A DNA stretch of 64,000 bases from Alphaproteobacteria bacterium (GTDB lineage: Bacteria > Pseudomonadota > Alphaproteobacteria > UBA7985). Positions 6,734 through 49,309 of this stretch are shown here, piece after piece; within the stretch, counting starts at the first letter, position 1, and each line of letters opens with the position of its first letter. The translations under genes were made by a program, and so were the position numbers. Below the pieces are notes generated by a model. The model was not told the DNA's origin. It saw only the letters and a list, made by a program, of their open reading frames with translations, and did no database searches. The DNA lies in the NCBI GenBank assembly GCA_965661545.1, contig CBFIEF010000004.1, positions 1,831 to 65,830 of the forward strand, read 5' to 3'.

Positions 6734-7630
6734 TTAGACTTCGGGGTCGTCCAGCCCCAAAGACCGGTGCGCCGCTGTGAGGGTGTTCGCGAGCAAGCAG
6801 GCAATGGTCATAGGGCCAACGCCACCCGGAACTGGTGTGATGGAACCCGCATGGCCCAAGCACTCGTCAAAGGCTACGTCGCCCACAAGTTTGGTCTTGC
6901 CGTCATCCTTCGGGATCCGATTGATGCCTACGTCAATCACACACGCACCGTCGCGCACCCAATCGCCGCGAACCATCTCAGGACGGCCAACGGCGGCCAC
7001 GAGGATGTCAGCGGTCTTGCAAAGCGCCTGCAAGTCCTTGGTGCGAGAGTGCGCCACAGTAACCGTTGCATTGGCGCCCAGAAGCAGTTGCGCCATTGGC
7101 TTGCCAACAATGTTCGAGCGGCCAACGATCACAGCATTTGCGCCAGAAATATCGCCCAGCGTGTCTTTGATGAGCATCAGTGAGCCCCATGGCGTGCACG
7201 GAATGATCGGCTTGTTGCGGCCTGTTGAGCCAATAGACAAGCGGCCTACGTTGACCTCGTGAAAGCCGTCTACATCCTTTTCCGGGATGATCCGGGCCAA
7301 GATGGAATCGCTGTCGATGTGCGCGGGCAGTGGCAGCTGAACCAGAATGCCGTGGATCTTTGGATCCGCGTTCAGCTCATCGATCAAGCTTTCGAGTTTG
7401 GATTGCTGCGTGTTCACCGACAGCTCGTGGTGGATGGACTCCATACCGGCTTCAGCGGTCTGCTTGACCTTGTTGCGCACGTAGACTTGGCTGGCAGGGT
7501 CTTCGCCGACAATCACAACGGCAAGACCCGGCTTGGCGCCATGGCTGCTCATCAACGCATCAGCGCCGGTTTTCACGCGTCCACGCAGACCGGCTGCAAA
7601 AGCTTTGCCGTCAATCAATTTTGCCGTCAT
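6734..7630 (-). CDS. folD: bifunctional methylenetetrahydrofolate dehydrogenase/methenyl-THF cyclohydrolase FolD
   Basis: 298 aa; [19 protein letters not shown]…[23 protein letters not shown]… is a textbook FolD N-terminus. Confidence 0.9.
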
Positions 7631-38408: not shown

Positions 38409-38509
38409 TCTTCACATTCCATTGCTCTTGCGCGCACCGGTCTTGAGCTTCAGTGCATCCTGTGGTTTGTCCCAGCAAATCACGGAACGCGGATCAGGAG
38501 AACTGCGAG

Positions 38510-39070
38510 ATGCAGACACGACCCTTGTTGAACCGTCTAGGCGGTGTGTTGGTTTTGATGGTGGCGGGACTCGCCTGGTATCTCAACCAACAAACCGCAC
38601 AGGCTGTTGATCTTGAAAACTACCAGCAGCGCGAAGCTTCGTCGAAGGTTTGTGGCTATGACCTTGGTCTCGATGGGCCAGAAGTGGAAACGTTGGTGGC
38701 GTTCGGAGAAGAACAGGGGGTCCGCTTTCCCTATGCTTTCGCACAAGTCACCGCGTATCTGTGGCTGATAGGTGAGCTGCCAGACTGCTACATGACCAAG
38801 AGCGTCGCGCGCGGACAAGGTTGGAAAAGCGCCGGAACAACCGTCGATGATATCAACATCGATGGGGCCATCGGCGGGGATACCTTTGGCAACCGCGAAG
38901 GCCGCCTGCCCCAGCGCCCCCGCAACCGCTACGCCGAAGCGGATCTGGATTACGTGCGCGGCAATCGCGGCGCAGCCAGACTGGTTTACGACCGTGAATT
39001 GACAGATCGCGGGTTCATTTGGGTCACTGTTGACCACTACGACAGCTTTCAGCGCATTCCGGAGTTATGA
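38510..39070 (+). CDS. secreted barnase-like guanyl-specific ribonuclease (RNase N1/T1/Ba family)
   Basis: Signal/TM MQTRPLLNRLGGVLVLMVAGLAWYL; C-terminal domain aligns with Bacillus barnase: YMTKSVARGQGW (YITKSEAQALGW), GGDTFGNREGRLP (GGDIFSNREGKLP), YAEADLDYVRGNRGAARLVY (WREADINYTSGFRNSDRILY), VTVDHYDSFQRI (KTTDHYQTFTKI); catalytic Lys/Glu/Arg/His all present; RBS ggagaa 8 nt upstream. Confidence 0.8.
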   Translation: MQTRPLLNRLGGVLVLMVAGLAWYLNQQTAQAVDLENYQQREASSKVCGYDLGLDGPEVETLVAFGEEQGVRFPYAFAQVTAYLWLIGELPDCYMTKSVARGQGWKSAGTTVDDINIDGAIGGDTFGNREGRLPQRPRNRYAEADLDYVRGNRGAARLVYDRELTDRGFIWVTVDHYDSFQRIPEL

Positions 39071-39348
39071 GCATGAAACACCCCATCAAGCGTGCCGTGA
39101 TCAATGACTTGGGCGCGAGCGATAGTGTGACGCAGATCAAGCGCCTGTACGAACAGCTAGGGATCGCCGCAGGCTTGAACCTCGATGCCCTCGCTGACGT
39201 GCTGACAGATCCAAACTGGCTACAAGGCCCAACTGTGATTTGCTGGCTGGCTTGCCCCAAAGCTCGCTCTGGCTGGCACAAGACGCTATACGACACCCTC
39301 GAAGAAGCAGCAGGTGTGCGCGACGATTTGACTTTTGTTGTGCGCTAG
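39067..39348 (+). CDS. barstar-like ribonuclease inhibitor (immunity protein)
   Basis: …KRAVINDLGASDSVTQIKRLYEQLGIAAGLNLDALADVLTD… parallels barstar [43 protein letters not shown] (barnase-contacting Asp conserved); ATGA overlap with the barnase stop. Confidence 0.7.
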   Translation: MSMKHPIKRAVINDLGASDSVTQIKRLYEQLGIAAGLNLDALADVLTDPNWLQGPTVICWLACPKARSGWHKTLYDTLEEAAGVRDDLTFVVR

Positions 39349-40181: not shown

Positions 40182-41384
40182 CTACGCAGCGATGGGCGCT
40201 TTGGCTTCCCGGTACGACAGTCGTTGCATTTCCATCAGTCGAGATTGGGTCCGTAGGAAGGGTTGCATGTCGTGCTCTTCCAAGTTCACCAATTCCGCAA
40301 TCGGCGCAGCAGCACGGGCATAGATGCTCGTGCCCGCTTCGTAGAAAACATCGATCATAATCCGGAACCGCTCACCGCTATCTCGCGTGTTGTAGCGGAT
40401 TTGCGGAATGTCATCGACGAAAACGCGGTCAAAGGACTGTGCAATCAGCAAGTAGTCATCTCGTCCCAGCGGCTGCTCACACAGGTCGGCATAGCGAAAC
40501 CGAGCGGTGCGTCCCGCCGCTTCAGGCACATTGACCGAACGTCCCAAGACCGATAGCTGCGCGGGCTCCCCGCGCACAACCTTGGCTTCACGCTCAAAAA
40601 TTGTTTGGAACGCCTGCGCCGTCTTTGCACCCAGCGGAGATACCCACGCTTCCGTCTCAGAACCGTGGCGGAGGCGATAGTCCTGTGAGTGATCCAGATT
40701 GACGACATCAAATTCGCGCTCAATCAGCTCAATCGTCGGCAGAAACAACTCGCGCTTTAAGCCGCCAGTGTACAGATCGCCCGGTGCTTCGTTCGAGGTG
40801 GTCACGACCGTAACGCCCTCTTCCATCATAACAGACAGCACGCGCCCCAGCAGGGTCGCATCGGCGATGTTGTTGACGAAGAATTCATCAAAGCACAGGA
40901 CTTTGGCCTTTCGCGCCTGTGCGCGGGCAAAGCGGGCAGCGGTGTCACCGCGCGTGTCGCCCTTGGACCGGCGCGCATGGATATCGGCATGCAGGTCACT
41001 CATGAACTCATGGAAATGACGGCGCTGCGCCAATTGTGGACCCATCGCGTCGTAAAACAGGTCCATAGCCGTCGTCTTACCCCGTCCAACAGGGCCAAAG
41101 AGGTACAAGCTACGGCGAACTTCTTTTTCCGCCGCGCCCGCGTTTGGTTTCCCGCCTCGACCAAAGAGGCGACCAATCCATCCCATGACGCCACTGGCTT
41201 CTCCCTGCTTCGCGGAAGTAGCGCGTGCGCGTTTGCGCCGGAGCGCGGATGGAGACAAAATTAGTTCCTGATAGAGCCCATCCAACGCCTCCACCGCCCG
41301 CCGTTGGGCAGGTTGTGGACGCAACTCGCCAGAAGAAAGCGCGCGTTCGTAAAGTTCGAGGGGTGAGGCGATCGTGGTGGACAT
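40182..41384 (-). CDS. zapE: cell division protein ZapE (AFG1-family ATPase)
   Basis: Walker A 'GPVGRGKT'; AFG1/ZapE length and motifs. Confidence 0.85.
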   Translation of the reverse strand: MSTTIASPLELYERALSSGELRPQPAQRRAVEALDGLYQELILSPSALRRKRARATSAKQGEASGVMGWIGRLFGRGGKPNAGAAEKEVRRSLYLFGPVGRGKTTAMDLFYDAMGPQLAQRRHFHEFMSDLHADIHARRSKGDTRGDTAARFARAQARKAKVLCFDEFFVNNIADATLLGRVLSVMMEEGVTVVTTSNEAPGDLYTGGLKRELFLPTIELIEREFDVVNLDHSQDYRLRHGSETEAWVSPLGAKTAQAFQTIFEREAKVVRGEPAQLSVLGRSVNVPEAAGRTARFRYADLCEQPLGRDDYLLIAQSFDRVFVDDIPQIRYNTRDSGERFRIMIDVFYEAGTSIYARAAAPIAELVNLEEHDMQPFLRTQSRLMEMQRLSYREAKAPIAA

Positions 41385-41446
41385 GAACGTTTGTTAGCCT
41401 GAAAACAAAAATGGGGGAAGTCACCTTCCCCCGCTTCTTTTGCGCC

Positions 41447-43741
41447 TTAGAACGGCAGAGGAATCTCCAGGCCATTGATGTTGAGCGCCTCACCCGCAGG
41501 AATATCGATCACAAACTCCAGCGCACCGTCATCGGTCGGCGTGCCAAACATCGACGCGCCAAACAAGCCCTCAAGCACTTGCTCGATTGTTTGCGCAGTG
41601 CCAGGGAAGGCATCAACTTCGCCACTTTCAATCGCCATCATCAACTCGATAAGGTGCGCCTGCGCTTCCGCGACGCCCAACATCGTCATCGTGATCGAGC
41701 CAACCGAGTAATTCGGCGGCAACATTGGATTGATGGCCACGGTCCCGGACGCTGTCGCCTCAACCTTGCCGCCACTGATGTACGAGGGCTGCACAACCAA
41801 CGAAGGCGGGGACGCCAAAATCGGAGAAATCAGCGCCGCGCCGGCCAGCAACAGCGATGACGGATCAAAATCCGGGTCTAGCATTGTGTCCACCGGCGGC
41901 AGCGGAACATTGCCCGCGATGGCCAAAATCATCGCCATGGGAATATCCGCAAGTTCGATCGTAAGACCTGCGTCCGTCGGTAAGAACCCCGGCTTGTCGC
42001 TACCGAGCACCAACTCGACCAGCACAGGATCAGCCACCTCGTCTTCGATCTCAGCCTGAAGGCCTGCGAATGATACGTGTTGCCGGATTTTAGCCTGATC
42101 GGTCAGCATATCGTGTGTTGTAAAGCTGATATCGGCAGCAGCTAAAGCCCCAGAAATCTCGCCCGTGTCAGCCGCAGTATTGGCGTAGAAAGACGCGTCT
42201 TTCAAACCCACCCTCAAGCTGGGTAAGTAGCTGCTGAGTGCAAACCGAAGCGCGTCAGCCAGCGTGAGATCATCGTTCTCCAAGCCCAGCACAATCTCCG
42301 TGATGCTGGTCAAGCTGTCGCGGATACTGTAGCCGGCGGAAAGCTCACCAAACGAGAAACCAATTTCCTCTGGCAATTCAACGTTAAACCCCAAGAGCCG
42401 CGCTGTCAGATCCTGCACGTCGCTGTCTGGTTCAAAGTTAAAGCTGGTCCCCAGCTCAGCGCCTGACATCGAAACTCTCAGCCGTTCGTCATCGCTCTCT
42501 GGCAGTTCAAGGCTCGCACCATCGAGCCTCAGCGCAAAATCACTGGCCGTGAGAACATCCGCACTCCATGCCAGTATCTTCCCACCAACACTCAGGTACA
42601 TGTCGATCAACACATCTTCGGGCTGGTAGAAATCTTCAGCCTCCATCATCCGCACTTGCGCAGACAGATCGGCGAGTGCGTCCGCTAGGGGGTCTAAGCC
42701 ATAGTCCGGTGTATAGGTGGTGCTGCCAGACAGCGATCCACCTTGCATATCCAAGAGACTGAATTCTCCGCCCGCACCAGACCAGTGGTCATAAACAATC
42801 AGCTGCAACTGCCCCAGCATGCCGGTCGTACTGGCTATTTTCGCTGCGTGGTCATAGGCCGTTTCAATCGAAAGGCCATCGAATTCCAGTCGTCCGTCAA
42901 AGTCCAGCAAGTCCACATCGTTCAAGGATAACTTGCCCATCTCAATGCTAGAATTGAGATCCTGCAATTCAGTGTCAAACAGGGGAATAAACCGGTCAAT
43001 CAGGTTTGCCGCGGCGTCCGCTGGCGAGGTGATTCCGGCTTCAAACATCGCGAACTGCTTGAAACCTTCATTGATTTCACGCTGCAAAAACCAATCTGGC
43101 GTGTTCACTGTTTCAAAGGAAAACCCAAAGCTCTCAAGGGATCCAATCTTTGCCCCATCAATCGCGGCAGAGAGGTCCATAATCGTAAAGTCAGCTCCAC
43201 TAAGCGGGTTCTGTTTCCGCTCATCAAAGAGGAAGTTGAGCGCGCCAACCTTTACATAATTTGCTTCTTCTGCGCCTGACTCTGCGAACAGCAAATCCTG
43301 AATGGTGAGTTCAAACCGTTCGGTCGCCTGCGCCTCCGGGTTGATGGTCATGCTGAGCTGAAACTCGGCAACTTCGAATGTTGTCCCTAATTCTGGGAGA
43401 AGTTCGATCAGCAGCTGTGCGAGATCCGTTGTCAGATTCAAGGAACCGTTTTCTGCTTCCGTGGCCTCAAAGGACAGATCACCCAGCGGCAACCCGTCGA
43501 TATTGGCGTCGGCCATCACCACGTCGAAAGCAGCCCCATCTCCGTCACCGTCTAACACCGTGAGCGTTTCATATTCGATGGGCAGCCCAAACAACAGAGG
43601 AACGGGCAGATCCTCCATGGACGTTAAAACCGTCGCGACTTGCGCCGCGGTCATGGTTTGAGACTGGGCTTGCGTGGCAAACGACGTCCCAAAAGCGGCG
43701 ATACACATCAACGCTTTAAGGTGTTGGAATGGCTTTTTCAT
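41447..43741 (-). CDS. large secreted acidic hypothetical protein (paralog A; possibly DUF2125-like)
   Basis: 764 aa; signal peptide MKKPFQHLKALMCIAAFGTSFATQAQS; Leu/Asp/Glu/Gly-rich; C-terminal '…LEFVIDIPAGEALNINGLEIPLPF' resembles the C-terminus of the downstream paralog. Confidence 0.6.
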   Translation of the reverse strand: MKKPFQHLKALMCIAAFGTSFATQAQSQTMTAAQVATVLTSMEDLPVPLLFGLPIEYETLTVLDGDGDGAAFDVVMADANIDGLPLGDLSFEATEAENGSLNLTTDLAQLLIELLPELGTTFEVAEFQLSMTINPEAQATERFELTIQDLLFAESGAEEANYVKVGALNFLFDERKQNPLSGADFTIMDLSAAIDGAKIGSLESFGFSFETVNTPDWFLQREINEGFKQFAMFEAGITSPADAAANLIDRFIPLFDTELQDLNSSIEMGKLSLNDVDLLDFDGRLEFDGLSIETAYDHAAKIASTTGMLGQLQLIVYDHWSGAGGEFSLLDMQGGSLSGSTTYTPDYGLDPLADALADLSAQVRMMEAEDFYQPEDVLIDMYLSVGGKILAWSADVLTASDFALRLDGASLELPESDDERLRVSMSGAELGTSFNFEPDSDVQDLTARLLGFNVELPEEIGFSFGELSAGYSIRDSLTSITEIVLGLENDDLTLADALRFALSSYLPSLRVGLKDASFYANTAADTGEISGALAAADISFTTHDMLTDQAKIRQHVSFAGLQAEIEDEVADPVLVELVLGSDKPGFLPTDAGLTIELADIPMAMILAIAGNVPLPPVDTMLDPDFDPSSLLLAGAALISPILASPPSLVVQPSYISGGKVEATASGTVAINPMLPPNYSVGSITMTMLGVAEAQAHLIELMMAIESGEVDAFPGTAQTIEQVLEGLFGASMFGTPTDDGALEFVIDIPAGEALNINGLEIPLPF

Positions 43742-43848
43742 CGGTCGGGACCTTTTTCAATACAGCCGTCAGTGTGAACGATTTCTCTCCGCAGTTCAAA
43801 AGTACTGCGAATGCAGGGGCTTTAAACGATAAAGTCAGGTCCGCCCAA

Positions 43849-45693
43849 TCAGCGCTGATTGAGCGGTGCGCCGTTGAGGTTTATCTCACCGAACTGTGTC
43901 AGCTCGAGCACGTACGTCTGCTCGTCTGCATTTGAAGCTGTGCCAAGATCGCGCAACCGCTCGGCCCATCCGGCGATGCGGCGGCCATAGTCTGCTAGAC
44001 CCTGCGCGTCCTCACCACCACTGGTCAAAGCGGCCTCTGTGGTTGTATCGGCGCGGCGCTCTACTTTGGTCAGGCCCTTCACACTCGCGGTGAAACTGCC
44101 AAAACCGAACAACGGCGGAATGGGCATGACCTGATGTTCACCAACGATGGTCATGGTGTAGTCATCGGCCACGACCTGGGCGTCTGTGACGCTGACACGA
44201 GGGGGCTGGATCAGGAACGGCGTGACCATACCCAGCGCACCGCCGACCAGCGAGCGGGCGAGAACACTGGGTTCGTTCACTGATCCGGCGCGTGGCAAGC
44301 TTTCCAACGTTTGACGCAGGTTCGCCATTGGCAAGCCGGTGACTTCAACGGTGCCTTCAAATTCGTTGGGAACCAGACTTTGTGACAGGGGGTCAAATCG
44401 GATCAGACGACCGCCCAAAGCCGGGACGATGCTGGGGATCACAATCGGCTCTGGCTCAACACCCTTTGGCGATTCCATTGCGCGCAAATCGATACCGTTT
44501 GCTTGGCCACGCAAGGTGATGAATCCGCCATCAATCCGCATGTCCGTCAAACCCAAGGCGCCCTGTGCCTGCTCCATCGACAAGGAGAATAGGCGGTCCG
44601 GCAGCGCAAAGACCAAGTCTTCCGCCATCCCCTCGAAACCAATGGTATCAAAGAAAAGCAGTGTATCGGCCAAAACAGACCAATTCGCACCAGCCTCAGC
44701 TGGTTTAAACAGCGAACCAAGTGCCAACGCGAAGCCTTCGACATCAGCGCCATTCAGATCAATGTTCAGCGCGCCGCGCTTCATCCCGGCAAAGTCTTCG
44801 CGGCGGCGGATATCCAAACCATCGAACACGATGTTGACCATCTGGGTTTTAAGGGCGTCGCCCTGTGACGACGCAGGCAAAGAGAAACCGTCGAGTGCGA
44901 CTTCAAGATCCTGCGGGCCATAGAATGCGTTTAGGCCTGTGACCTGTAAATCGGTAAACGATGAAGCCGCCGGCAGATAGAGGTTTTCAAGGTGAACCAG
45001 AGTGGCGCCCAGCAGGCTGTCATTCCCCTCATTTCTTGCGTCGAGAAACCGGAAATCAAACGAGCGTCCGAGACTGGCATAGGGCGCACCCGCCGCGCTG
45101 CCTGTCCAGCGCCCATCGTAAATGATGTTCTCTATCGCAAAGGCGTAACTGGTGTCTGGGTCGCCTTCTTCCGCTGGCTTTGCGCCGCCGGAACCAGTCA
45201 GGTTTGACAGGCGCAGCGAATAGCCACTTTCATCTGCGCGCATGACCACTTCACCCGCACCCAGCCGAAGACCATTGGGCGCGGCAAGCGCTAAATCGGT
45301 GATGCGATATTCGAGCCGTTGATACCCTTTAATCGCATCGTTCCATTCGCCCGCAAAGTCCCACTGTGCTGCTTGCACGCCGGATCCGTCAGGGTTGGTG
45401 ACGCGCGTCGGCATTTCAATGCTTTTCACGTCGAAAATACTGTCGCCCAAGGCGCGAATATCGATGCTCACCAACCCCACGGGAACAGAGCCGTAGCTTG
45501 CGTCTTTCAGCGAGACGGTGTTGCTGCGCACAAACACGTCCTCAGCATCAAATGCCAACGGACCAAAGAGGCCGAAGTTGTGCCCTAACTCGGACCGAAC
45601 AACCTGCTCCACGCTTTGCGCTGAAACGCTTGAAACAGTAACCAGTGTGATGAACGATGCGGCGGCAAGTTTGCCAAGGCGAGAAAGGAACAA
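43849..45693 (-). CDS. large secreted hypothetical protein (paralog B; possibly DUF2125-like)
   Basis: 614 aa; signal peptide MFLSRLGKLAAASFITLVTVSSVSAQS; C-terminal '…YVLELTQFGEINLNGAPLNQR' similar to paralog A. Confidence 0.6.
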   Translation of the reverse strand: MFLSRLGKLAAASFITLVTVSSVSAQSVEQVVRSELGHNFGLFGPLAFDAEDVFVRSNTVSLKDASYGSVPVGLVSIDIRALGDSIFDVKSIEMPTRVTNPDGSGVQAAQWDFAGEWNDAIKGYQRLEYRITDLALAAPNGLRLGAGEVVMRADESGYSLRLSNLTGSGGAKPAEEGDPDTSYAFAIENIIYDGRWTGSAAGAPYASLGRSFDFRFLDARNEGNDSLLGATLVHLENLYLPAASSFTDLQVTGLNAFYGPQDLEVALDGFSLPASSQGDALKTQMVNIVFDGLDIRRREDFAGMKRGALNIDLNGADVEGFALALGSLFKPAEAGANWSVLADTLLFFDTIGFEGMAEDLVFALPDRLFSLSMEQAQGALGLTDMRIDGGFITLRGQANGIDLRAMESPKGVEPEPIVIPSIVPALGGRLIRFDPLSQSLVPNEFEGTVEVTGLPMANLRQTLESLPRAGSVNEPSVLARSLVGGALGMVTPFLIQPPRVSVTDAQVVADDYTMTIVGEHQVMPIPPLFGFGSFTASVKGLTKVERRADTTTEAALTSGGEDAQGLADYGRRIAGWAERLRDLGTASNADEQTYVLELTQFGEINLNGAPLNQR

Positions 45694-45875
45694 TCAACTA
45701 ACCTCACGTTATTCGCGGAAGCGCAGTGCGTGGAACCTTTGTGCTTACCGTTAATCAGCAAAGGCCAAGTGGCGCATAATTGAAACACAAATGCAGCAAT
45801 TTCGCGATCAAGCCAACGATAACTTCATCCAAAACCTACAACTTGAGCGGATTTTCACCCCTCGTCGGCGATGAA

Positions 45876-46625
45876 TTAGCCTTTGGGCGTTGCGGGATCG
45901 ATCTGAGCGGACTCAAAGCCCTCTGGCAACAAGGCCAAGGATGCGTCTTCAATTGCGTCTGAAACCTGGTTCAAGAATTCTCGCTTGGCCAAGCCGGGCA
46001 TAATAGGCGGCTGGATGGCAACCGTGATCTTGCCCGGCTTAAGCCCCTTGAAGCCCCGATCCCAGTACACACCGCTGTCCGTGCCAACAGGCACAACCGG
46101 CAGTGCCAGCTTTTCGTACATCGCAGCGACGCCGGGGTGGTAGCGCCCTCGGACACCGGGAACCGTTCGCGTTCCTTCTGGAAAGATGATCACCGGCATA
46201 CCTGCTTCGGCTTTGGCAGCAGAATCAACCAACAGCTTCCGCAGCGATGACAGCCCGGCTGATCGGTCCAGTGCGACGATATCCAAGTGACGGATAAACC
46301 AACCAAAAATAGGCTGCGTTAGCAGTTCTTCCTTCATCACATAAGCTGCATTTGGGATCAAAAGCGACCAGATGGCAGTATCAAAAAAGGATTGGTGCTT
46401 GGAGGCGAGGATGTAGGGAGCCTCTGGCAAGTGTTCCAGACCTTCGACTTTCCAAGTCACGCCCGCGAAGATCCGCGAAATCGCGAGAACGCCCTTGGCC
46501 CAAAACAGCCCAAAGGCAAAAGTCGCACGCTTGCCAAAGAAGACCACCGGCCAGCAAAGAGCCCCCAGCACACCCGTCCAGAGATATCCAACCAGTTTCG
46601 CAATCGTCGAACGAAAAATCGTCAT
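45876..46625 (-). CDS. lysophospholipid / 1-acyl-sn-glycerol-3-phosphate acyltransferase (PlsC family)
   Basis: HxxxxD-box region '…ILASKHQSFFDT…' and 'FPEGTR' motif. Confidence 0.8.
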   Translation of the reverse strand: MTIFRSTIAKLVGYLWTGVLGALCWPVVFFGKRATFAFGLFWAKGVLAISRIFAGVTWKVEGLEHLPEAPYILASKHQSFFDTAIWSLLIPNAAYVMKEELLTQPIFGWFIRHLDIVALDRSAGLSSLRKLLVDSAAKAEAGMPVIIFPEGTRTVPGVRGRYHPGVAAMYEKLALPVVPVGTDSGVYWDRGFKGLKPGKITVAIQPPIMPGLAKREFLNQVSDAIEDASLALLPEGFESAQIDPATPKG

Positions 46626-46720
46626 GGAAAGTTTGCACCCCTTTGAGCCGCATGATTGAACGACTGCATACCTTTGTCCGCGCACACCCTAACGACCTCA
46701 GGCAAAGGTTCAAGTCTAAG

Positions 46721-47635
46721 CTAAAATGTCCGTTTTAGTTTTCGAAGGACATTCCCTCTCGCAGAGATAACGGCAACAGCAACCAGCAACGTTACGACCA
46801 GAATCATCACTGGAACCTGCAAGGGCAGAATGACGCTCGGCTCCCGAAAAATCCGAGGCCAATACAGCGCTTGAAGCAACCAACCCGCCAAACAGCCGAA
46901 CCCGATCCCCATCATCGCACTGCGCAGCGCGAAGCCAACGAACTGTGACAGGATTAGCCGATCAGGCGCGCCCGAAATATACAGGACATGAATGACCTCG
47001 GTTTGCAGATCAACCGACTGTCCGATGACCAAAGCCGACGTGATGCTAACGACGATAAAGACAGCAGCAATTAGACCGAAACCTTTGGTCAGCTCGGTCA
47101 ATCGGGCGGATTGCAAGTGCTGCCGCTGCGCCTGATTATCATCAACCATGGCACCGGGAGCTGCGCGATCCAGATTGGCCCGGAGGTTGGCAACGTCCAG
47201 ATCAGGGCGGCGCGTGCGCTTGATCGATATAATGGTCGGCAACGGCACTTGCGCGGTTACGGCATTGCCAAGCGCTTTCTCGACAAGCAGCTGGGTCTGT
47301 TGCCGGTCCAGAACCTCTATCCGTCCCAACCCTTCGGTATTCTGCAAAGCGTCCATCGCGCGATTGACTGCTGGATCAGTCAGGCTCGGGGTCAAACCCG
47401 GCGTCGAGGGCACGAAGACTGTTAGCTCACTGTTTGCAAGCCCGATGGACTCCTGTAGCTCGAACAGCCTTTGCGTGGTTTGCAGGGCAAAGAAGACCGC
47501 AAGCGATGCCATAAGTCCCAACACCAATGGCAGCAACATTGCCACGTTCTGTCCCCGAAACACCATCAGCGGTTCTTTCGGTGCAATCAGGTCTTGGACT
47601 GGGCGACGGCGTGTTTTTGGTTGGTTCTGGCTCAT
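46721..47635 (-). CDS. ftsX: cell division ABC transporter permease FtsX-like
   Basis: 304 aa; TM1, large periplasmic loop, 3 C-terminal TM; directly downstream of ftsE with 4-nt overlap. Confidence 0.8.
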   Translation of the reverse strand: MSQNQPKTRRRPVQDLIAPKEPLMVFRGQNVAMLLPLVLGLMASLAVFFALQTTQRLFELQESIGLANSELTVFVPSTPGLTPSLTDPAVNRAMDALQNTEGLGRIEVLDRQQTQLLVEKALGNAVTAQVPLPTIISIKRTRRPDLDVANLRANLDRAAPGAMVDDNQAQRQHLQSARLTELTKGFGLIAAVFIVVSITSALVIGQSVDLQTEVIHVLYISGAPDRLILSQFVGFALRSAMMGIGFGCLAGWLLQALYWPRIFREPSVILPLQVPVMILVVTLLVAVAVISARGNVLRKLKRTF

Positions 47636-48303
47636 CCGATTGCGGGCTCGCGCGATGCCAGCTGTCCGCGATCCAAGCGGATTTCCGGATAATCAAAGCG
47701 CTGCAGCAAGCTCTCGCTATGCGTTGCAACAACAACGGTGGTGCCCAACTTGTTCAATTCTTCAAAAAGCCGAATGAGTTTGAGTCCAATGCCGTCATCG
47801 ACATTGCCGGTCGGCTCATCAGCCAAGAGCAGCGCCGGGCGATTGATCACAGCGCGGGCGATGGCCGCTCGCTGCTTCTGCCCGCCGCTGAGTTCTTCGG
47901 GCTTGGCCTTGGCGTAATCGCCCAACCCGACCCAATGCAGCAGTTCCTGCACGTAATCCCGCTCGCTCGTGGTGTCCTTGCCCGTCACTCGCAGGGGCAA
48001 GGCAACGTTGTCATAGATGCTCATATGATCAATCAGCCGGAAATCTTGAAACACCACGCCAAGCCGAGACCGCACATAGGCCTTTTGATCCCGCGAGAGA
48101 TCGTAGGCGTTGCGTCCAAAAATCTGCAATCGCCCTGCCGTTGGCTTTAGCCCAAGAAACATCAGCTTCAGCAGTGTCGTTTTCCCCGCGCCACTGGGTC
48201 CGGTCACAAAGGAGAATGAACCCGCCGGCAAGTTTAAGGACACGTCCCGAATGATTCCGGGGCGCGCGGGGTAGTCGACGGTAACCTGATCCATTCGTAG
48301 CAA
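47632..48303 (-). CDS. ftsE: cell division ATP-binding protein FtsE
   Basis: Walker A GPSGAGKTT, ABC signature LSGGQKQR, Walker B LLLADEPTGNVD. Confidence 0.9.
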   Translation of the reverse strand: MLRMDQVTVDYPARPGIIRDVSLNLPAGSFSFVTGPSGAGKTTLLKLMFLGLKPTAGRLQIFGRNAYDLSRDQKAYVRSRLGVVFQDFRLIDHMSIYDNVALPLRVTGKDTTSERDYVQELLHWVGLGDYAKAKPEELSGGQKQRAAIARAVINRPALLLADEPTGNVDDGIGLKLIRLFEELNKLGTTVVVATHSESLLQRFDYPEIRLDRGQLASREPAIG

Positions 48304-48529
48304 CGCTGGAACCCTTCACTCACCAAGACAGTTTGCGTCTTATGATAGATAATCTAGGCGCATAGTCTTGGAAGTTATACTCATAATGTGCAGATTATGA
48401 TGCAGTTTAAGTCCAGATGGCACTCCCATTTTTCGCACTTCCGTGTTTAAAGAGGGTCAGCTTTCGGGATTCGCGACTCGAACCTCATCGGGTGCGATCG
48501 TTCTTTTGCATGAAAGGTCCGACGAACCA

Positions 48530-49309
48530 ATGCGCGTCGAATGTCCAAATTGCAGCACCACGTACGAAGTGCCGGCGGTTCATTTCGTGGACGGTACCCG
48601 TCGCCTGCGCTGCACCCAGTGCGGCTATCGGTGGAATCAATCGGCGAGCGAGGCTGACTTAAACGACAGCAAAAAGTCGACCCCGCTGTTGGACATGCTT
48701 GAACCAGCGATGAATATGGAGGCTTCGGCAGCGGTCAACGTGGACATCGTCGATGATGGCGACAACGAAGCTCGGACCTTTGCCGCAGAGCTTGACCCGC
48801 AATCAGCCGAAGATGCTTTTGACGCCATCGACGACGCCCTCGCGCCGTTTCCTGTGCCAACGGCTGAGGAAGAATTGGAAGCCGCTGGACGACGTTGGCA
48901 ATGGGGACTTGGCCTTGTCGCAGCGACGATCATCGTCTCGCTGATGATTTTGGGACGGGAGGCAGTCGTGAGCGCCGCGCCCTTTACTCAAGCGCTGTAT
49001 CGCACAGCGGGCTTGGAACCGTGGAGCGATCTTCGTCGCTGGGATTTGTGCGCCACTGGGGTCGATGCCTCTGACATCCGCTACACTCTGACCAACAAAA
49101 GCGCATTCAGTCGCTCTGTTCCTGACCTCTACATTACCGAAGCCGCCGGTGGTTTCGTGCGGATCGACGGACCTTCGGGTTCAATGCGCGCGGGTGAAAC
49201 AGTGCGCGTCCGTGCAACAAATCCGGGTCTGGAGATCACCAGCCCAGCGACGTTATCTTTGTCGACACAGGCCGATCAGTCCGACGCGCGAACCTTCGCA
49301 GACTGCTAG
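48530..49309 (+). CDS. MJ0042-type zinc-ribbon domain protein (DUF3426-like), single TM
   Basis: MRVECPNCSTTYEVPAVHF…RLRCTQCGYRW zinc ribbon; acidic linker; TM; C-terminal periplasmic domain. Confidence 0.6.
   Translation: MRVECPNCSTTYEVPAVHFVDGTRRLRCTQCGYRWNQSASEADLNDSKKSTPLLDMLEPAMNMEASAAVNVDIVDDGDNEARTFAAELDPQSAEDAFDAIDDALAPFPVPTAEEELEAAGRRWQWGLGLVAATIIVSLMILGREAVVSAAPFTQALYRTAGLEPWSDLRRWDLCATGVDASDIRYTLTNKSAFSRSVPDLYITEAAGGFVRIDGPSGSMRAGETVRVRATNPGLEITSPATLSLSTQADQSDARTFADC

Follow-up and report, generated by a model that had tools for sequence, protein, structure and literature searches.

What are the two large exported proteins encoded downstream of the cell-division genes ftsE and ftsX in an uncultured marine alphaproteobacterium, and does their location say anything about what they do? 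The question is raised by a stretch of 64,000 nucleotides (hereafter, the window; contig CBFIEF010000004.1 of assembly GCA_965661545.1, GTDB lineage UBA7985), in which two adjacent genes of the minus strand encode proteins of 614 and 764 residues, called here ORF614 and ORF764 (ORF, open reading frame). An initial annotation, made by reading the sequence alone, had placed the two ORFs at exactly the coordinates confirmed here (Table 1) and had proposed that they are paralogues, that they may belong to the DUF2125 family and that their neighbours hint at a role in the envelope or in division. As shown below, the paralogy is well founded and the last two proposals are not. The explanation that we favour, tentatively and as one that falls just short of probable, is that this tandem duplicate pair acts as a heteromeric beta-sheet component of the cell envelope. 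ORF614 and ORF764 would thus represent a tiny orphan superfamily of Sec-exported, Cys-free, acidic and beta-sheet-rich envelope proteins, one that appears confined to uncultured marine Alphaproteobacteria.

Two exported paralogues that share both ends but not the middle

The similar C-termini that had first drawn attention to the pair reflect real homology rather than chance. BLASTP aligns ORF614 with ORF764 over 111 residues, all of them C-terminal (E 4e-6), while profile-profile comparison of the ORF614-type alignment (A2) with ORF764-type alignments (A1 and A3) covers 227 C-terminal columns (E 3.7e-6); with a deeper ORF764-type alignment, assembled from orthologous loci, hhalign reaches E 6e-10 with a probability of 96.6% over 234 columns. 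The N-terminal regions of the two families also align by hhalign, collinearly and with E-values between 2.5e-5 and 5.9e-5. The pairwise comparison suggested in the initial annotation therefore delimits two shared modules, one of about 235 residues at the C-terminus and one of about 130-155 residues at the N-terminus, whereas the middle 250-350 residues or so of the two proteins give no hhalign alignment. Self-comparison detected no internal repeats in either protein. Judged by these alignments, ORF614 and ORF764 are true paralogues over their whole length, conserved at both ends and diverged in between.

The common N-terminal module is composed of an amphipathic helix and a meander of strands of 12-15 residues, and distant relatives match its ORF614 version (profile positions 3-210). 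The common C-terminal module comprises a hydrophobic, Pro-rich motif, a helical hairpin and, last, a beta-hairpin that closes with 'xINGxPxP'; in ORF614 it carries the invariant motifs GRLxRFDPLSQSLVP and TPFLIQPP, and its terminal hairpin ends in INLNG. More distant members of the superfamily (P0044, P0047, P0050 and P0052) are single-copy proteins of 590-710 residues with the same N- and C-terminal modules. In tblastn, single-copy relatives match both window ORFs at the N-terminus and ORF764 at the C-terminus as well, the C-terminal match being recovered with P0043, P0044 and P0047. Since single-copy relatives carry both modules, the origin of the pair is best explained by tandem duplication of an ancestor of that kind.

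Both proteins appear to be exported, as had been proposed. Their N-termini show the succession of n-region, h-region and A-x-A motif that is characteristic of Sec signal peptides, with TQA followed by QS in ORF764 and VSA followed by QS in ORF614, and a short h-region followed by A-x-A and Q is retained in every relative aligned. This pattern suggests that the signal peptide is cleaved in both proteins and in their relatives. The mature proteins contain neither Cys nor any further hydrophobic segment of transmembrane strength. The description of the pair as acidic and rich in Leu, Gly and Asp is borne out by composition (L 13.7, A 11.1, D 8.7 and G 8.1% in ORF764; L 11.4, G 10.9, A 10.5 and D 7.1% in ORF614), Ala being also abundant, and by the isoelectric points of the mature chains, 4.05 for ORF764 and 4.43 for ORF614.

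A small family of unequal partners

The superfamily is small. A word-index search retrieved 28 clusters for ORF614 and four for ORF764, all from marine metagenomes or metagenome-assembled genomes (MAGs) and all without a Pfam domain; a second search of this kind, with an 11-sequence ORF764-type profile, returned the same four proteins only. An exhaustive HMMER search of 1.84 billion representative proteins with the ORF614 profile yielded 21 proteins at E<=1e-3. All the family members found belong to marine alphaproteobacterial MAGs. The ORF614 gene is present in 10 GTDB species, every one of them known from MAGs, and the orthologues share 47-87% identity. The titles of these MAGs read Alphaproteobacteria, Rhodospirillaceae or 'Geminicoccus sp.', so that none is by name a member of the Rhodobacterales, the order in which the initial annotation had suggested a survey of synteny.

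The two genes travel together. Each of the 12 related loci has, within the reach of its contig, an ORF764-type gene after the ORF614-type one, and the ORF764 orthologues, directly downstream of each ORF614 orthologue, range from 73% down to 28% identity. The TTG start codon of ORF614 and the GAGG Shine-Dalgarno sequence ahead of it are both kept in the orthologous loci. The partners differ in their pace: because at equal divergence ORF614 retains 51% identity and ORF764 only 28%, ORF764 evolves about twice as fast. In one long-read MAG (L012, JAYQIC010000007.1) the pair is broken into several ORFs by apparent frameshifts, with tblastn matching two pieces per gene; this is probably an assembly error and not pseudogenisation.

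Relationship to DUF2125, DUF945 and other known families

Do the two proteins belong to a family that has already been described? The initial annotation had recognised no motif of a characterised family in them, and the profile searches agree. Neither protein matched a Pfam family at E<=10 or a PADLOC model at E<=1. Against NCBIfam at E<=10, ORF614 had no match and ORF764 had one at chance level (NF002137; E 0.53, 10.2 bits against a cut-off of 94). Sequence-profile searches of the PDB with A2 and A3 gave a chance match only (E 0.97).

The suggested membership of DUF2125 did not survive. Neither ORF614 nor ORF764 matches PF09898 at E<=10, and no member of the window's clade matches this hidden Markov model (HMM). 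Among nine ORF764-type orthologues and eight distant relatives, P0047 was the only protein with a match (18.3 bits, E 1.8e-3, below the gathering score of 24.2 bits), which runs from C-terminus to C-terminus and covers HMM positions 221-314 of 319; a tblastn search with P0047 against plasmids found no match. The DUF2125 proteins resemble the pair in being alphaproteobacterial, exported and uncharacterised; however, their model has about 320 positions, and the proteins of the pair are 2-2.5 times larger. DUF2125 has been called 'unstudied' by Levine (2019), who reported that HHpred connects it weakly with the Chorein-N-like N-terminus of DUF2993 (PMC6791001), and a DUF2125 protein is among the released proteins of Asaia (PMC12502724).

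A second family, DUF945 (PF06097, gathering score 26.8 bits), which includes YdgA and YihF of E. coli, gave comparable signals. The single-copy relative P0044 matches it from C-terminus to C-terminus (21.9 bits, E 1e-4, sub-threshold), and sub-threshold, collinear matches occur in three of 11 ORF764-type proteins (best E 0.0046), one of which aligns middle to middle; the L004 orthologue scores 12.5 bits, also below threshold. ORF614 and ORF764 themselves do not match the DUF945 HMM at E<=10, and comparison by hhalign of the superfamily alignment (A4) with YdgA alone was not significant (E 0.05).

DUF945 proteins and the pair show both likenesses and differences: (i) both are exported or membrane-targeted, and the YdgA sequence reads in the same order as the ORF614 model, with an N-terminal targeting segment and a helix ahead of a beta-rich body, which a helical hairpin and then a beta-hairpin follow at the C-terminus. 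(ii) YdgA ends in YANGQITLNGQKM, and ORF614 and ORF764 in FGEINLNGAPL and GEALNINGLEIP, respectively, sharing a '...G-x-hydrophobic-x-hydrophobic-NG...' motif. (iii) In contrast to the A-x-A cleavage motifs of the pair, the N-terminus of YdgA reads as an apparent uncleaved anchor, MNKSLVAVGVIVALGVVWTGGAWYTGKK. (iv) The YdgA family spans 450-570 residues, while ORF614 and ORF764 form a tandem, heterologous pair and are 20-50% longer. A remote kinship with DUF945 and DUF2125 is therefore plausible, although it is only a hint, the profile-profile comparison not being significant; very remote relatives of these two families of exported proteins is what the pair would most plausibly be. We found no functional study of DUF2125, DUF945 or YdgA in the literature.

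Candidate regulatory elements at both ends of the pair

The pair is bounded by two conserved non-coding elements. Downstream of ORF764 there is an intrinsic-terminator-like hairpin, and the zapE start codon, an ATG, lies about 19 nt past the T-run of this hairpin. Hairpin, T-run and the leader that follows, TTTTCAGGCTAACAA, together at 41385-41446 of the minus strand in the window, are conserved in L002 and L004-L007, and the GGCTAAC motif of the leader also precedes zapE in L001 and L009-L011, where the hairpins differ. The terminator scan detected no terminator-like site on the coding strand between plsC, ORF614 and ORF764. The gap between the T-run and the ATG leaves no room for a promoter, and zapE is therefore probably expressed by partial read-through of the terminator of the pair, at what would be a lower level.

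Upstream, the 182-nt spacer between plsC and ORF614 holds a block of 40 nt that is nearly invariant across six genomes whose proteins share just 62-87% identity, with TCGCGAAATTGCTGCA(T/A)TTG as its core. In L003-L007 this pattern occurs solely upstream of the ORF614 orthologues. In the window it has a single exact match, the site itself, and three matches with one mismatch, one of which is the same site on the opposite strand. The block is absent from the subclade with 50% identity and from the other loci fetched; Rfam has no match in the locus, this element included; and a sigma-70 promoter scan stayed at background level, the block showing no fit to the sigma-70 consensus. It may be a promoter or operator of the pair, a candidate suggested by its conservation and position. 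Because this element is conserved, it is probable that the pair, as the distal part of the ftsEX-plsC-ORF614-ORF764 string, would have its own regulated promoter.

Genomic context

On the coding strand the genes follow one another in the order ftsE, ftsX, plsC, ORF614, ORF764 and zapE. Pfam and NCBIfam profiles support the identities given to the four neighbours in the initial annotation, but the orientation given there has to be reversed: the pair lies downstream, not upstream, of plsC and ftsEX, and upstream of zapE. This string (ftsE-ftsX-plsC-X-X'-zapE, with X and X' for the ORF614- and ORF764-type genes) is found throughout the window's clade, including the subclade (L001) in which the two proteins retain only 50% and 28% identity.

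The picture changes outside the clade. The next lineage out (P0034, an ORF614-type match with E 1.6e-63; locus L019) has the order folD-X-X'-zapE. L019 is one of three more distant lineages, the others being L016 and L017, in which folD is followed at once by the homologue, be it a single gene or a pair. Two of the single-copy genes, those of P0044 and P0047, come directly after folD, and that of P0052 is located elsewhere. The ftsEX loci of Azospirillum and Methylobacterium replicons contain no related gene; in Azospirillum, plsC is divergent from ftsE-ftsX-ydcF, and Methylobacterium has ftsE-ftsX-DUF218. By gene order, the X-X'-zapE block is older than the adjacency to plsC and ftsEX, and the pair appears to have moved from a folD to a plsC context with zapE kept downstream. 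In the window, folD (6734-7630, minus strand) is 34 kb away from the pair and is followed by genes for an MsrP-like molybdopterin oxidoreductase and an aldehyde dehydrogenase. The possibility that folD is followed by a third paralogue was considered and rejected, since the MsrP-like gene occupies that position and tblastn gave no further matches.

A survey of synteny had been proposed as a check. It confirms that the two genes are always adjacent and that zapE is kept in L019, whereas the adjacency to plsC and ftsEX is confined to the window's clade. Because the distant loci have a folD context, this adjacency reflects a rearrangement specific to the clade and counts only weakly as evidence of function; nothing indicates that the pair is functionally tied to FtsEX or PlsC.

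These data bear directly on the reading put forward in the initial annotation, in which ORF614 and ORF764 are envelope proteins of the DUF2125 family and cooperate with FtsEX, PlsC or ZapE in remodelling the envelope at the division site. The clade-wide conservation of the gene order, in spite of identities as low as 50% and 28%, would fit such a role, as would the retention of zapE next to the pair in L019, the terminator abutting zapE, which suggests transcriptional coupling, and the sub-threshold DUF2125 match of one relative. However, the two window proteins do not match PF09898; L016-L019, Azospirillum and Methylobacterium all lack the adjacency; and the single-copy relatives are found away from zapE, which in one locus is 3.4 kb off and on the opposite strand. 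Moreover, Pfam identifies no LytM, EnvC-like, SPOR, coiled-coil activator or other divisome-related domain in the pair, unlike the EnvC/LytM-type partners of FtsEX. With the distant synteny and the missing divisome domain contradicting a partner of FtsEX, we regard this reading as very improbable.

Predicted structure and its rival interpretations

The AlphaFold (AF2) model of ORF614, obtained from 23 sequences, has a mean predicted local distance difference test score (pLDDT) of 67.6 and a predicted template-modelling score of 0.58, with pLDDT above 80 for residues 30-200. It starts with a short helix, followed by a meander of some eleven strands of up to 15 residues; in the middle, the helix pairs 203-238 and 318-347 stand between further four-strand blocks; and the C-terminal module is modelled as three strands, a long helical hairpin (541-583) and the terminal beta-hairpin. 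The model of ORF764, from five sequences, is unusable (pLDDT 38), although the order of its secondary-structure elements is similar to that of ORF614. Foldseek searches of the PDB and the BFVD with the ORF614 model returned no match at E<=1e-3; an AsmA/TamB-like fold, one of those that the initial annotation had suggested looking for, would on this result be possible but not confirmed. The best PDB match was the lipid-transfer protein BLTP1/LPD-3 (9cap_A; E 0.021, probability 0.33, template-modelling score for the query (TMq) 0.22, root-mean-square deviation (rmsd) 23 Å) and the best BFVD match a phage tail fibre, neither of them significant.

The most attractive rival to our explanation is that the pair are AsmA/TamB/BLTP-like 'beta-taco' bridges, which shuttle phospholipids between the inner and the outer membrane. 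AsmA, TamB, YhdP, BLTP1/LPD-3 and VPS13 resemble the pair as envelope proteins with long beta-strand meanders punctuated by helices, and the helix-interrupted meander of 12-15-residue strands in ORF614, the LPD-3 match at the top of the PDB list, the weak similarity of DUF2125 to the Chorein-N-like N-terminus of DUF2993 and the plsC gene next door, a location that would suit a lipid carrier, can all be read in this way. Against this, the LPD-3 match is at noise level, and the AsmA, TamB, DUF748, DUF3971 and Chorein_N models of Pfam and NCBIfam have no match at E<=10. AsmA-like proteins also keep an uncleaved N-terminal anchor, whereas the pair has signal peptides that look cleavable and is much shorter than TamB and YhdP; the adjacency to plsC is lost in the more distant relatives; and the DUF2125 link is sub-threshold and concerns the C-terminus, not the Chorein-N-like N-terminus. 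We consider lipid bridges of this kind unlikely.

An acidic, Cys-free protein with a Sec signal peptide could also be an outer-membrane beta-barrel inserted by BAM, and Foldseek lists many weak matches to BamA, TonB-dependent receptors, FadL, porins and LptD; ORF764, moreover, closes with IPLPF, a stretch of alternating hydrophobic residues whose last is Phe. All the barrel matches have, however, template-modelling scores of 0.08-0.15, an rmsd above 20 Å and a probability of at most 0.15. The long in-chain helices of the model (203-238, 318-347 and 541-583) are atypical of barrels, and the terminal Phe is unconserved: P0051 ends in LDMN, P0050 and P0052 are extended at the C-terminus, and ORF614 ends in PLNQR. 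Contradicted by its helices and by the unconserved Phe, a barrel seems to us hardly credible.

The proteins might instead be released or displayed at the cell surface as adhesin-like, surface-layer-like or abundant exoproteins, and not be periplasmic at all. Large size, strong acidity, the lack of Cys, the beta-rich body and the signal peptides would be consistent with this, as would fast evolution (that of ORF764 above all), restriction to one marine lineage, the Asaia protein and the phage tail fibre at the top of the BFVD list, though this match is not significant. Yet the surroundings hold neither a secretion-system gene nor an anchoring motif and there are no internal repeats, the gene order of this housekeeping region has stayed stable across deep divergence, and the Asaia case concerns DUF2125, to which the pair has no shown membership. 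Release or surface display thus appears quite unlikely.

A proposed heteromeric envelope component

Each of these alternatives wants a defining feature, and we return to the proposal of a tandem duplicate pair forming a heteromeric beta-sheet component of the envelope. After cleavage of their signal peptides the two proteins would jointly form an elongated structural or bridging element, located in the periplasm or at the outer membrane, with one slow-evolving subunit, ORF614, and one fast-evolving subunit, ORF764. The co-occurrence of the two genes in 12 loci and in a distant lineage that also has the pair, their unequal rates of evolution, their export signals and a fold of helices and long strands are all in favour of this proposal.

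Several points weigh against it: (i) the heteromer is inferred from co-occurrence alone, and with low confidence. (ii) No significant structural or sequence neighbour supports a biochemical role; hhalign of A4 against four enterobacterial DUF945 proteins (YdgA/YihF of E. coli, Klebsiella and Proteus) gave E 0.2, and both here and in the comparison with YdgA alone only the last 14-22 columns, those of a terminal 'G-x-x-x-x-NG' hairpin, were aligned. (iii) The invariant motifs, GRLxRFDPLSQSLVP and G..GM.TPFLIQPP, fall in the segments of lowest confidence of the ORF614 model (residues 410-432 and 460-495, approximately 44209-44464), while sequence conservation is much lower in the N-terminal beta-meander, which is well predicted. 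Because the most conserved motifs sit in these parts of the model, the fold of the C-terminal module is uncertain; as a speculation from the model, the motifs could be partner-binding or membrane-interacting elements. (iv) The candidate locations include the periplasm and the outer membrane, and release from the cell is a further candidate. (v) The read-through expression of zapE is deduced from spacing alone.

A more ambitious version of the proposal can be formulated, in which the pair would be a two-subunit periplasmic device with a new elongated beta-sheet fold and a conserved and a fast-evolving subunit, specific to this abundant though uncultured marine lineage and transcriptionally coupled to the division ATPase ZapE through an attenuating terminator, for example as a lipid or envelope bridge that spans the periplasm and is needed at division, and it would offer a first handle on the function of DUF945/DUF2125-like proteins. 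We think this a long shot, and the present evidence does not point to a new mechanism. On current data ORF614 and ORF764 are a genuine conserved hypothetical exported pair, at most a remote, duplicated variant of the YdgA/DUF2125 type.

If the pair does form a functional envelope complex, it would be a lineage-specific envelope component of uncultured marine Alphaproteobacteria and could give the first functional clue to the YdgA/DUF945 and DUF2125 proteins. As things stand, it is one among many conserved hypothetical exported families in MAGs. The most useful results are the negative ones, namely that the two proteins are not DUF2125 members at any threshold that they have no significant structural neighbour, and that their place next to ftsEX and plsC should not be taken as a pointer to function.

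Features of the locus and neighbouring genes

Table 1. Positions of the gene pair, its modules, its flanking elements and its neighbours in the window.
Feature	Position	Strand	Evidence
ORF614, upstream paralogue, exported beta-rich protein, 614 aa, TTG start	43849-45693	minus	ORF list; identical protein in public database (P0005)
ORF764, downstream paralogue, exported, faster-evolving, 764 aa, ATG start	41447-43741	minus	ORF list; orthologues follow ORF614 orthologues
ORF614 putative signal peptide, residues 1-25, MFLSRLGKLAAASFITLVTVSSVSA followed by Q	45619-45693	minus	sequence reading; A-x-A followed by Q common to relatives
ORF614 N-terminal module, about residues 28-156, amphipathic helix then beta-meander	45226-45612	minus	hhalign; pLDDT; matches of relatives
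ORF614 C-terminal module, about residues 367-612	43858-44595	minus	hhalign; invariant columns; secondary structure of model
ORF764 putative signal peptide, residues 1-22/25, MKKPFQHLKALMCIAAFGTSFATQA followed by Q	43667-43741	minus	sequence reading
ORF764 N-terminal module, about residues 35-175, homologous to that of ORF614	43217-43639	minus	hhalign; tblastn from P0044 and P0047
ORF764 C-terminal module, about residues 527-761, SPILASPPSLVV motif, ending NINGLEIPLPF	41459-42163	minus	hhalign; BLASTP; tblastn
Intrinsic-terminator-like hairpin GGGGGAAGGTGACTTCCCCC and T-run	41403-41432	minus	terminator scan; 15 nt past ORF764 stop
Conserved 40-nt element, AAGTTATCGTTGGCTTGATCGCGAAATTGCTGCATTTGTG, near-palindrome AATTGC-N-GCAATT	45786-45825	minus	alignment of six orthologous spacers
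zapE (AFG1-like ATPase), downstream neighbour	40182-41384	minus	PF03969 E 4.8e-87; NF040713 ZapE 334 bits, cut-off 140
PlsC-family lysophospholipid acyltransferase, upstream neighbour	45876-46685	minus	PF01553 E 3.3e-21; NCBIfam matches generic only
ftsX, upstream neighbour	46721-47635	minus	Pfam FtsX (FtsX-like permease)
ftsE, upstream neighbour	47632-48303	minus	Pfam ABC_tran; TIGR02673 FtsE 256.7 bits, just under cut-off 264.85

Beyond ftsE, and divergent from it, the window encodes an MJ0042-type zinc-ribbon membrane protein (48443-49309, plus strand). The same layout occurs in L001 (PF13717), and in this lineage the gene seems to accompany ftsEX stably.

On the other side of the pair, two overlapping ORFs of 205 and 93 residues (38453-39070 and 39067-39348, both on the plus strand) are located between a PduO-type adenosyltransferase gene and argJ. 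At the orthologous positions Pfam recognises a ribonuclease (RNase) domain (Ribonuclease, PF00545) in L001 and L002 and, in L002, also Barstar (PF01337). By these matches, which are those of the L001 and L002 genes, the two ORFs look like a secreted barnase-like RNase and its immunity protein.

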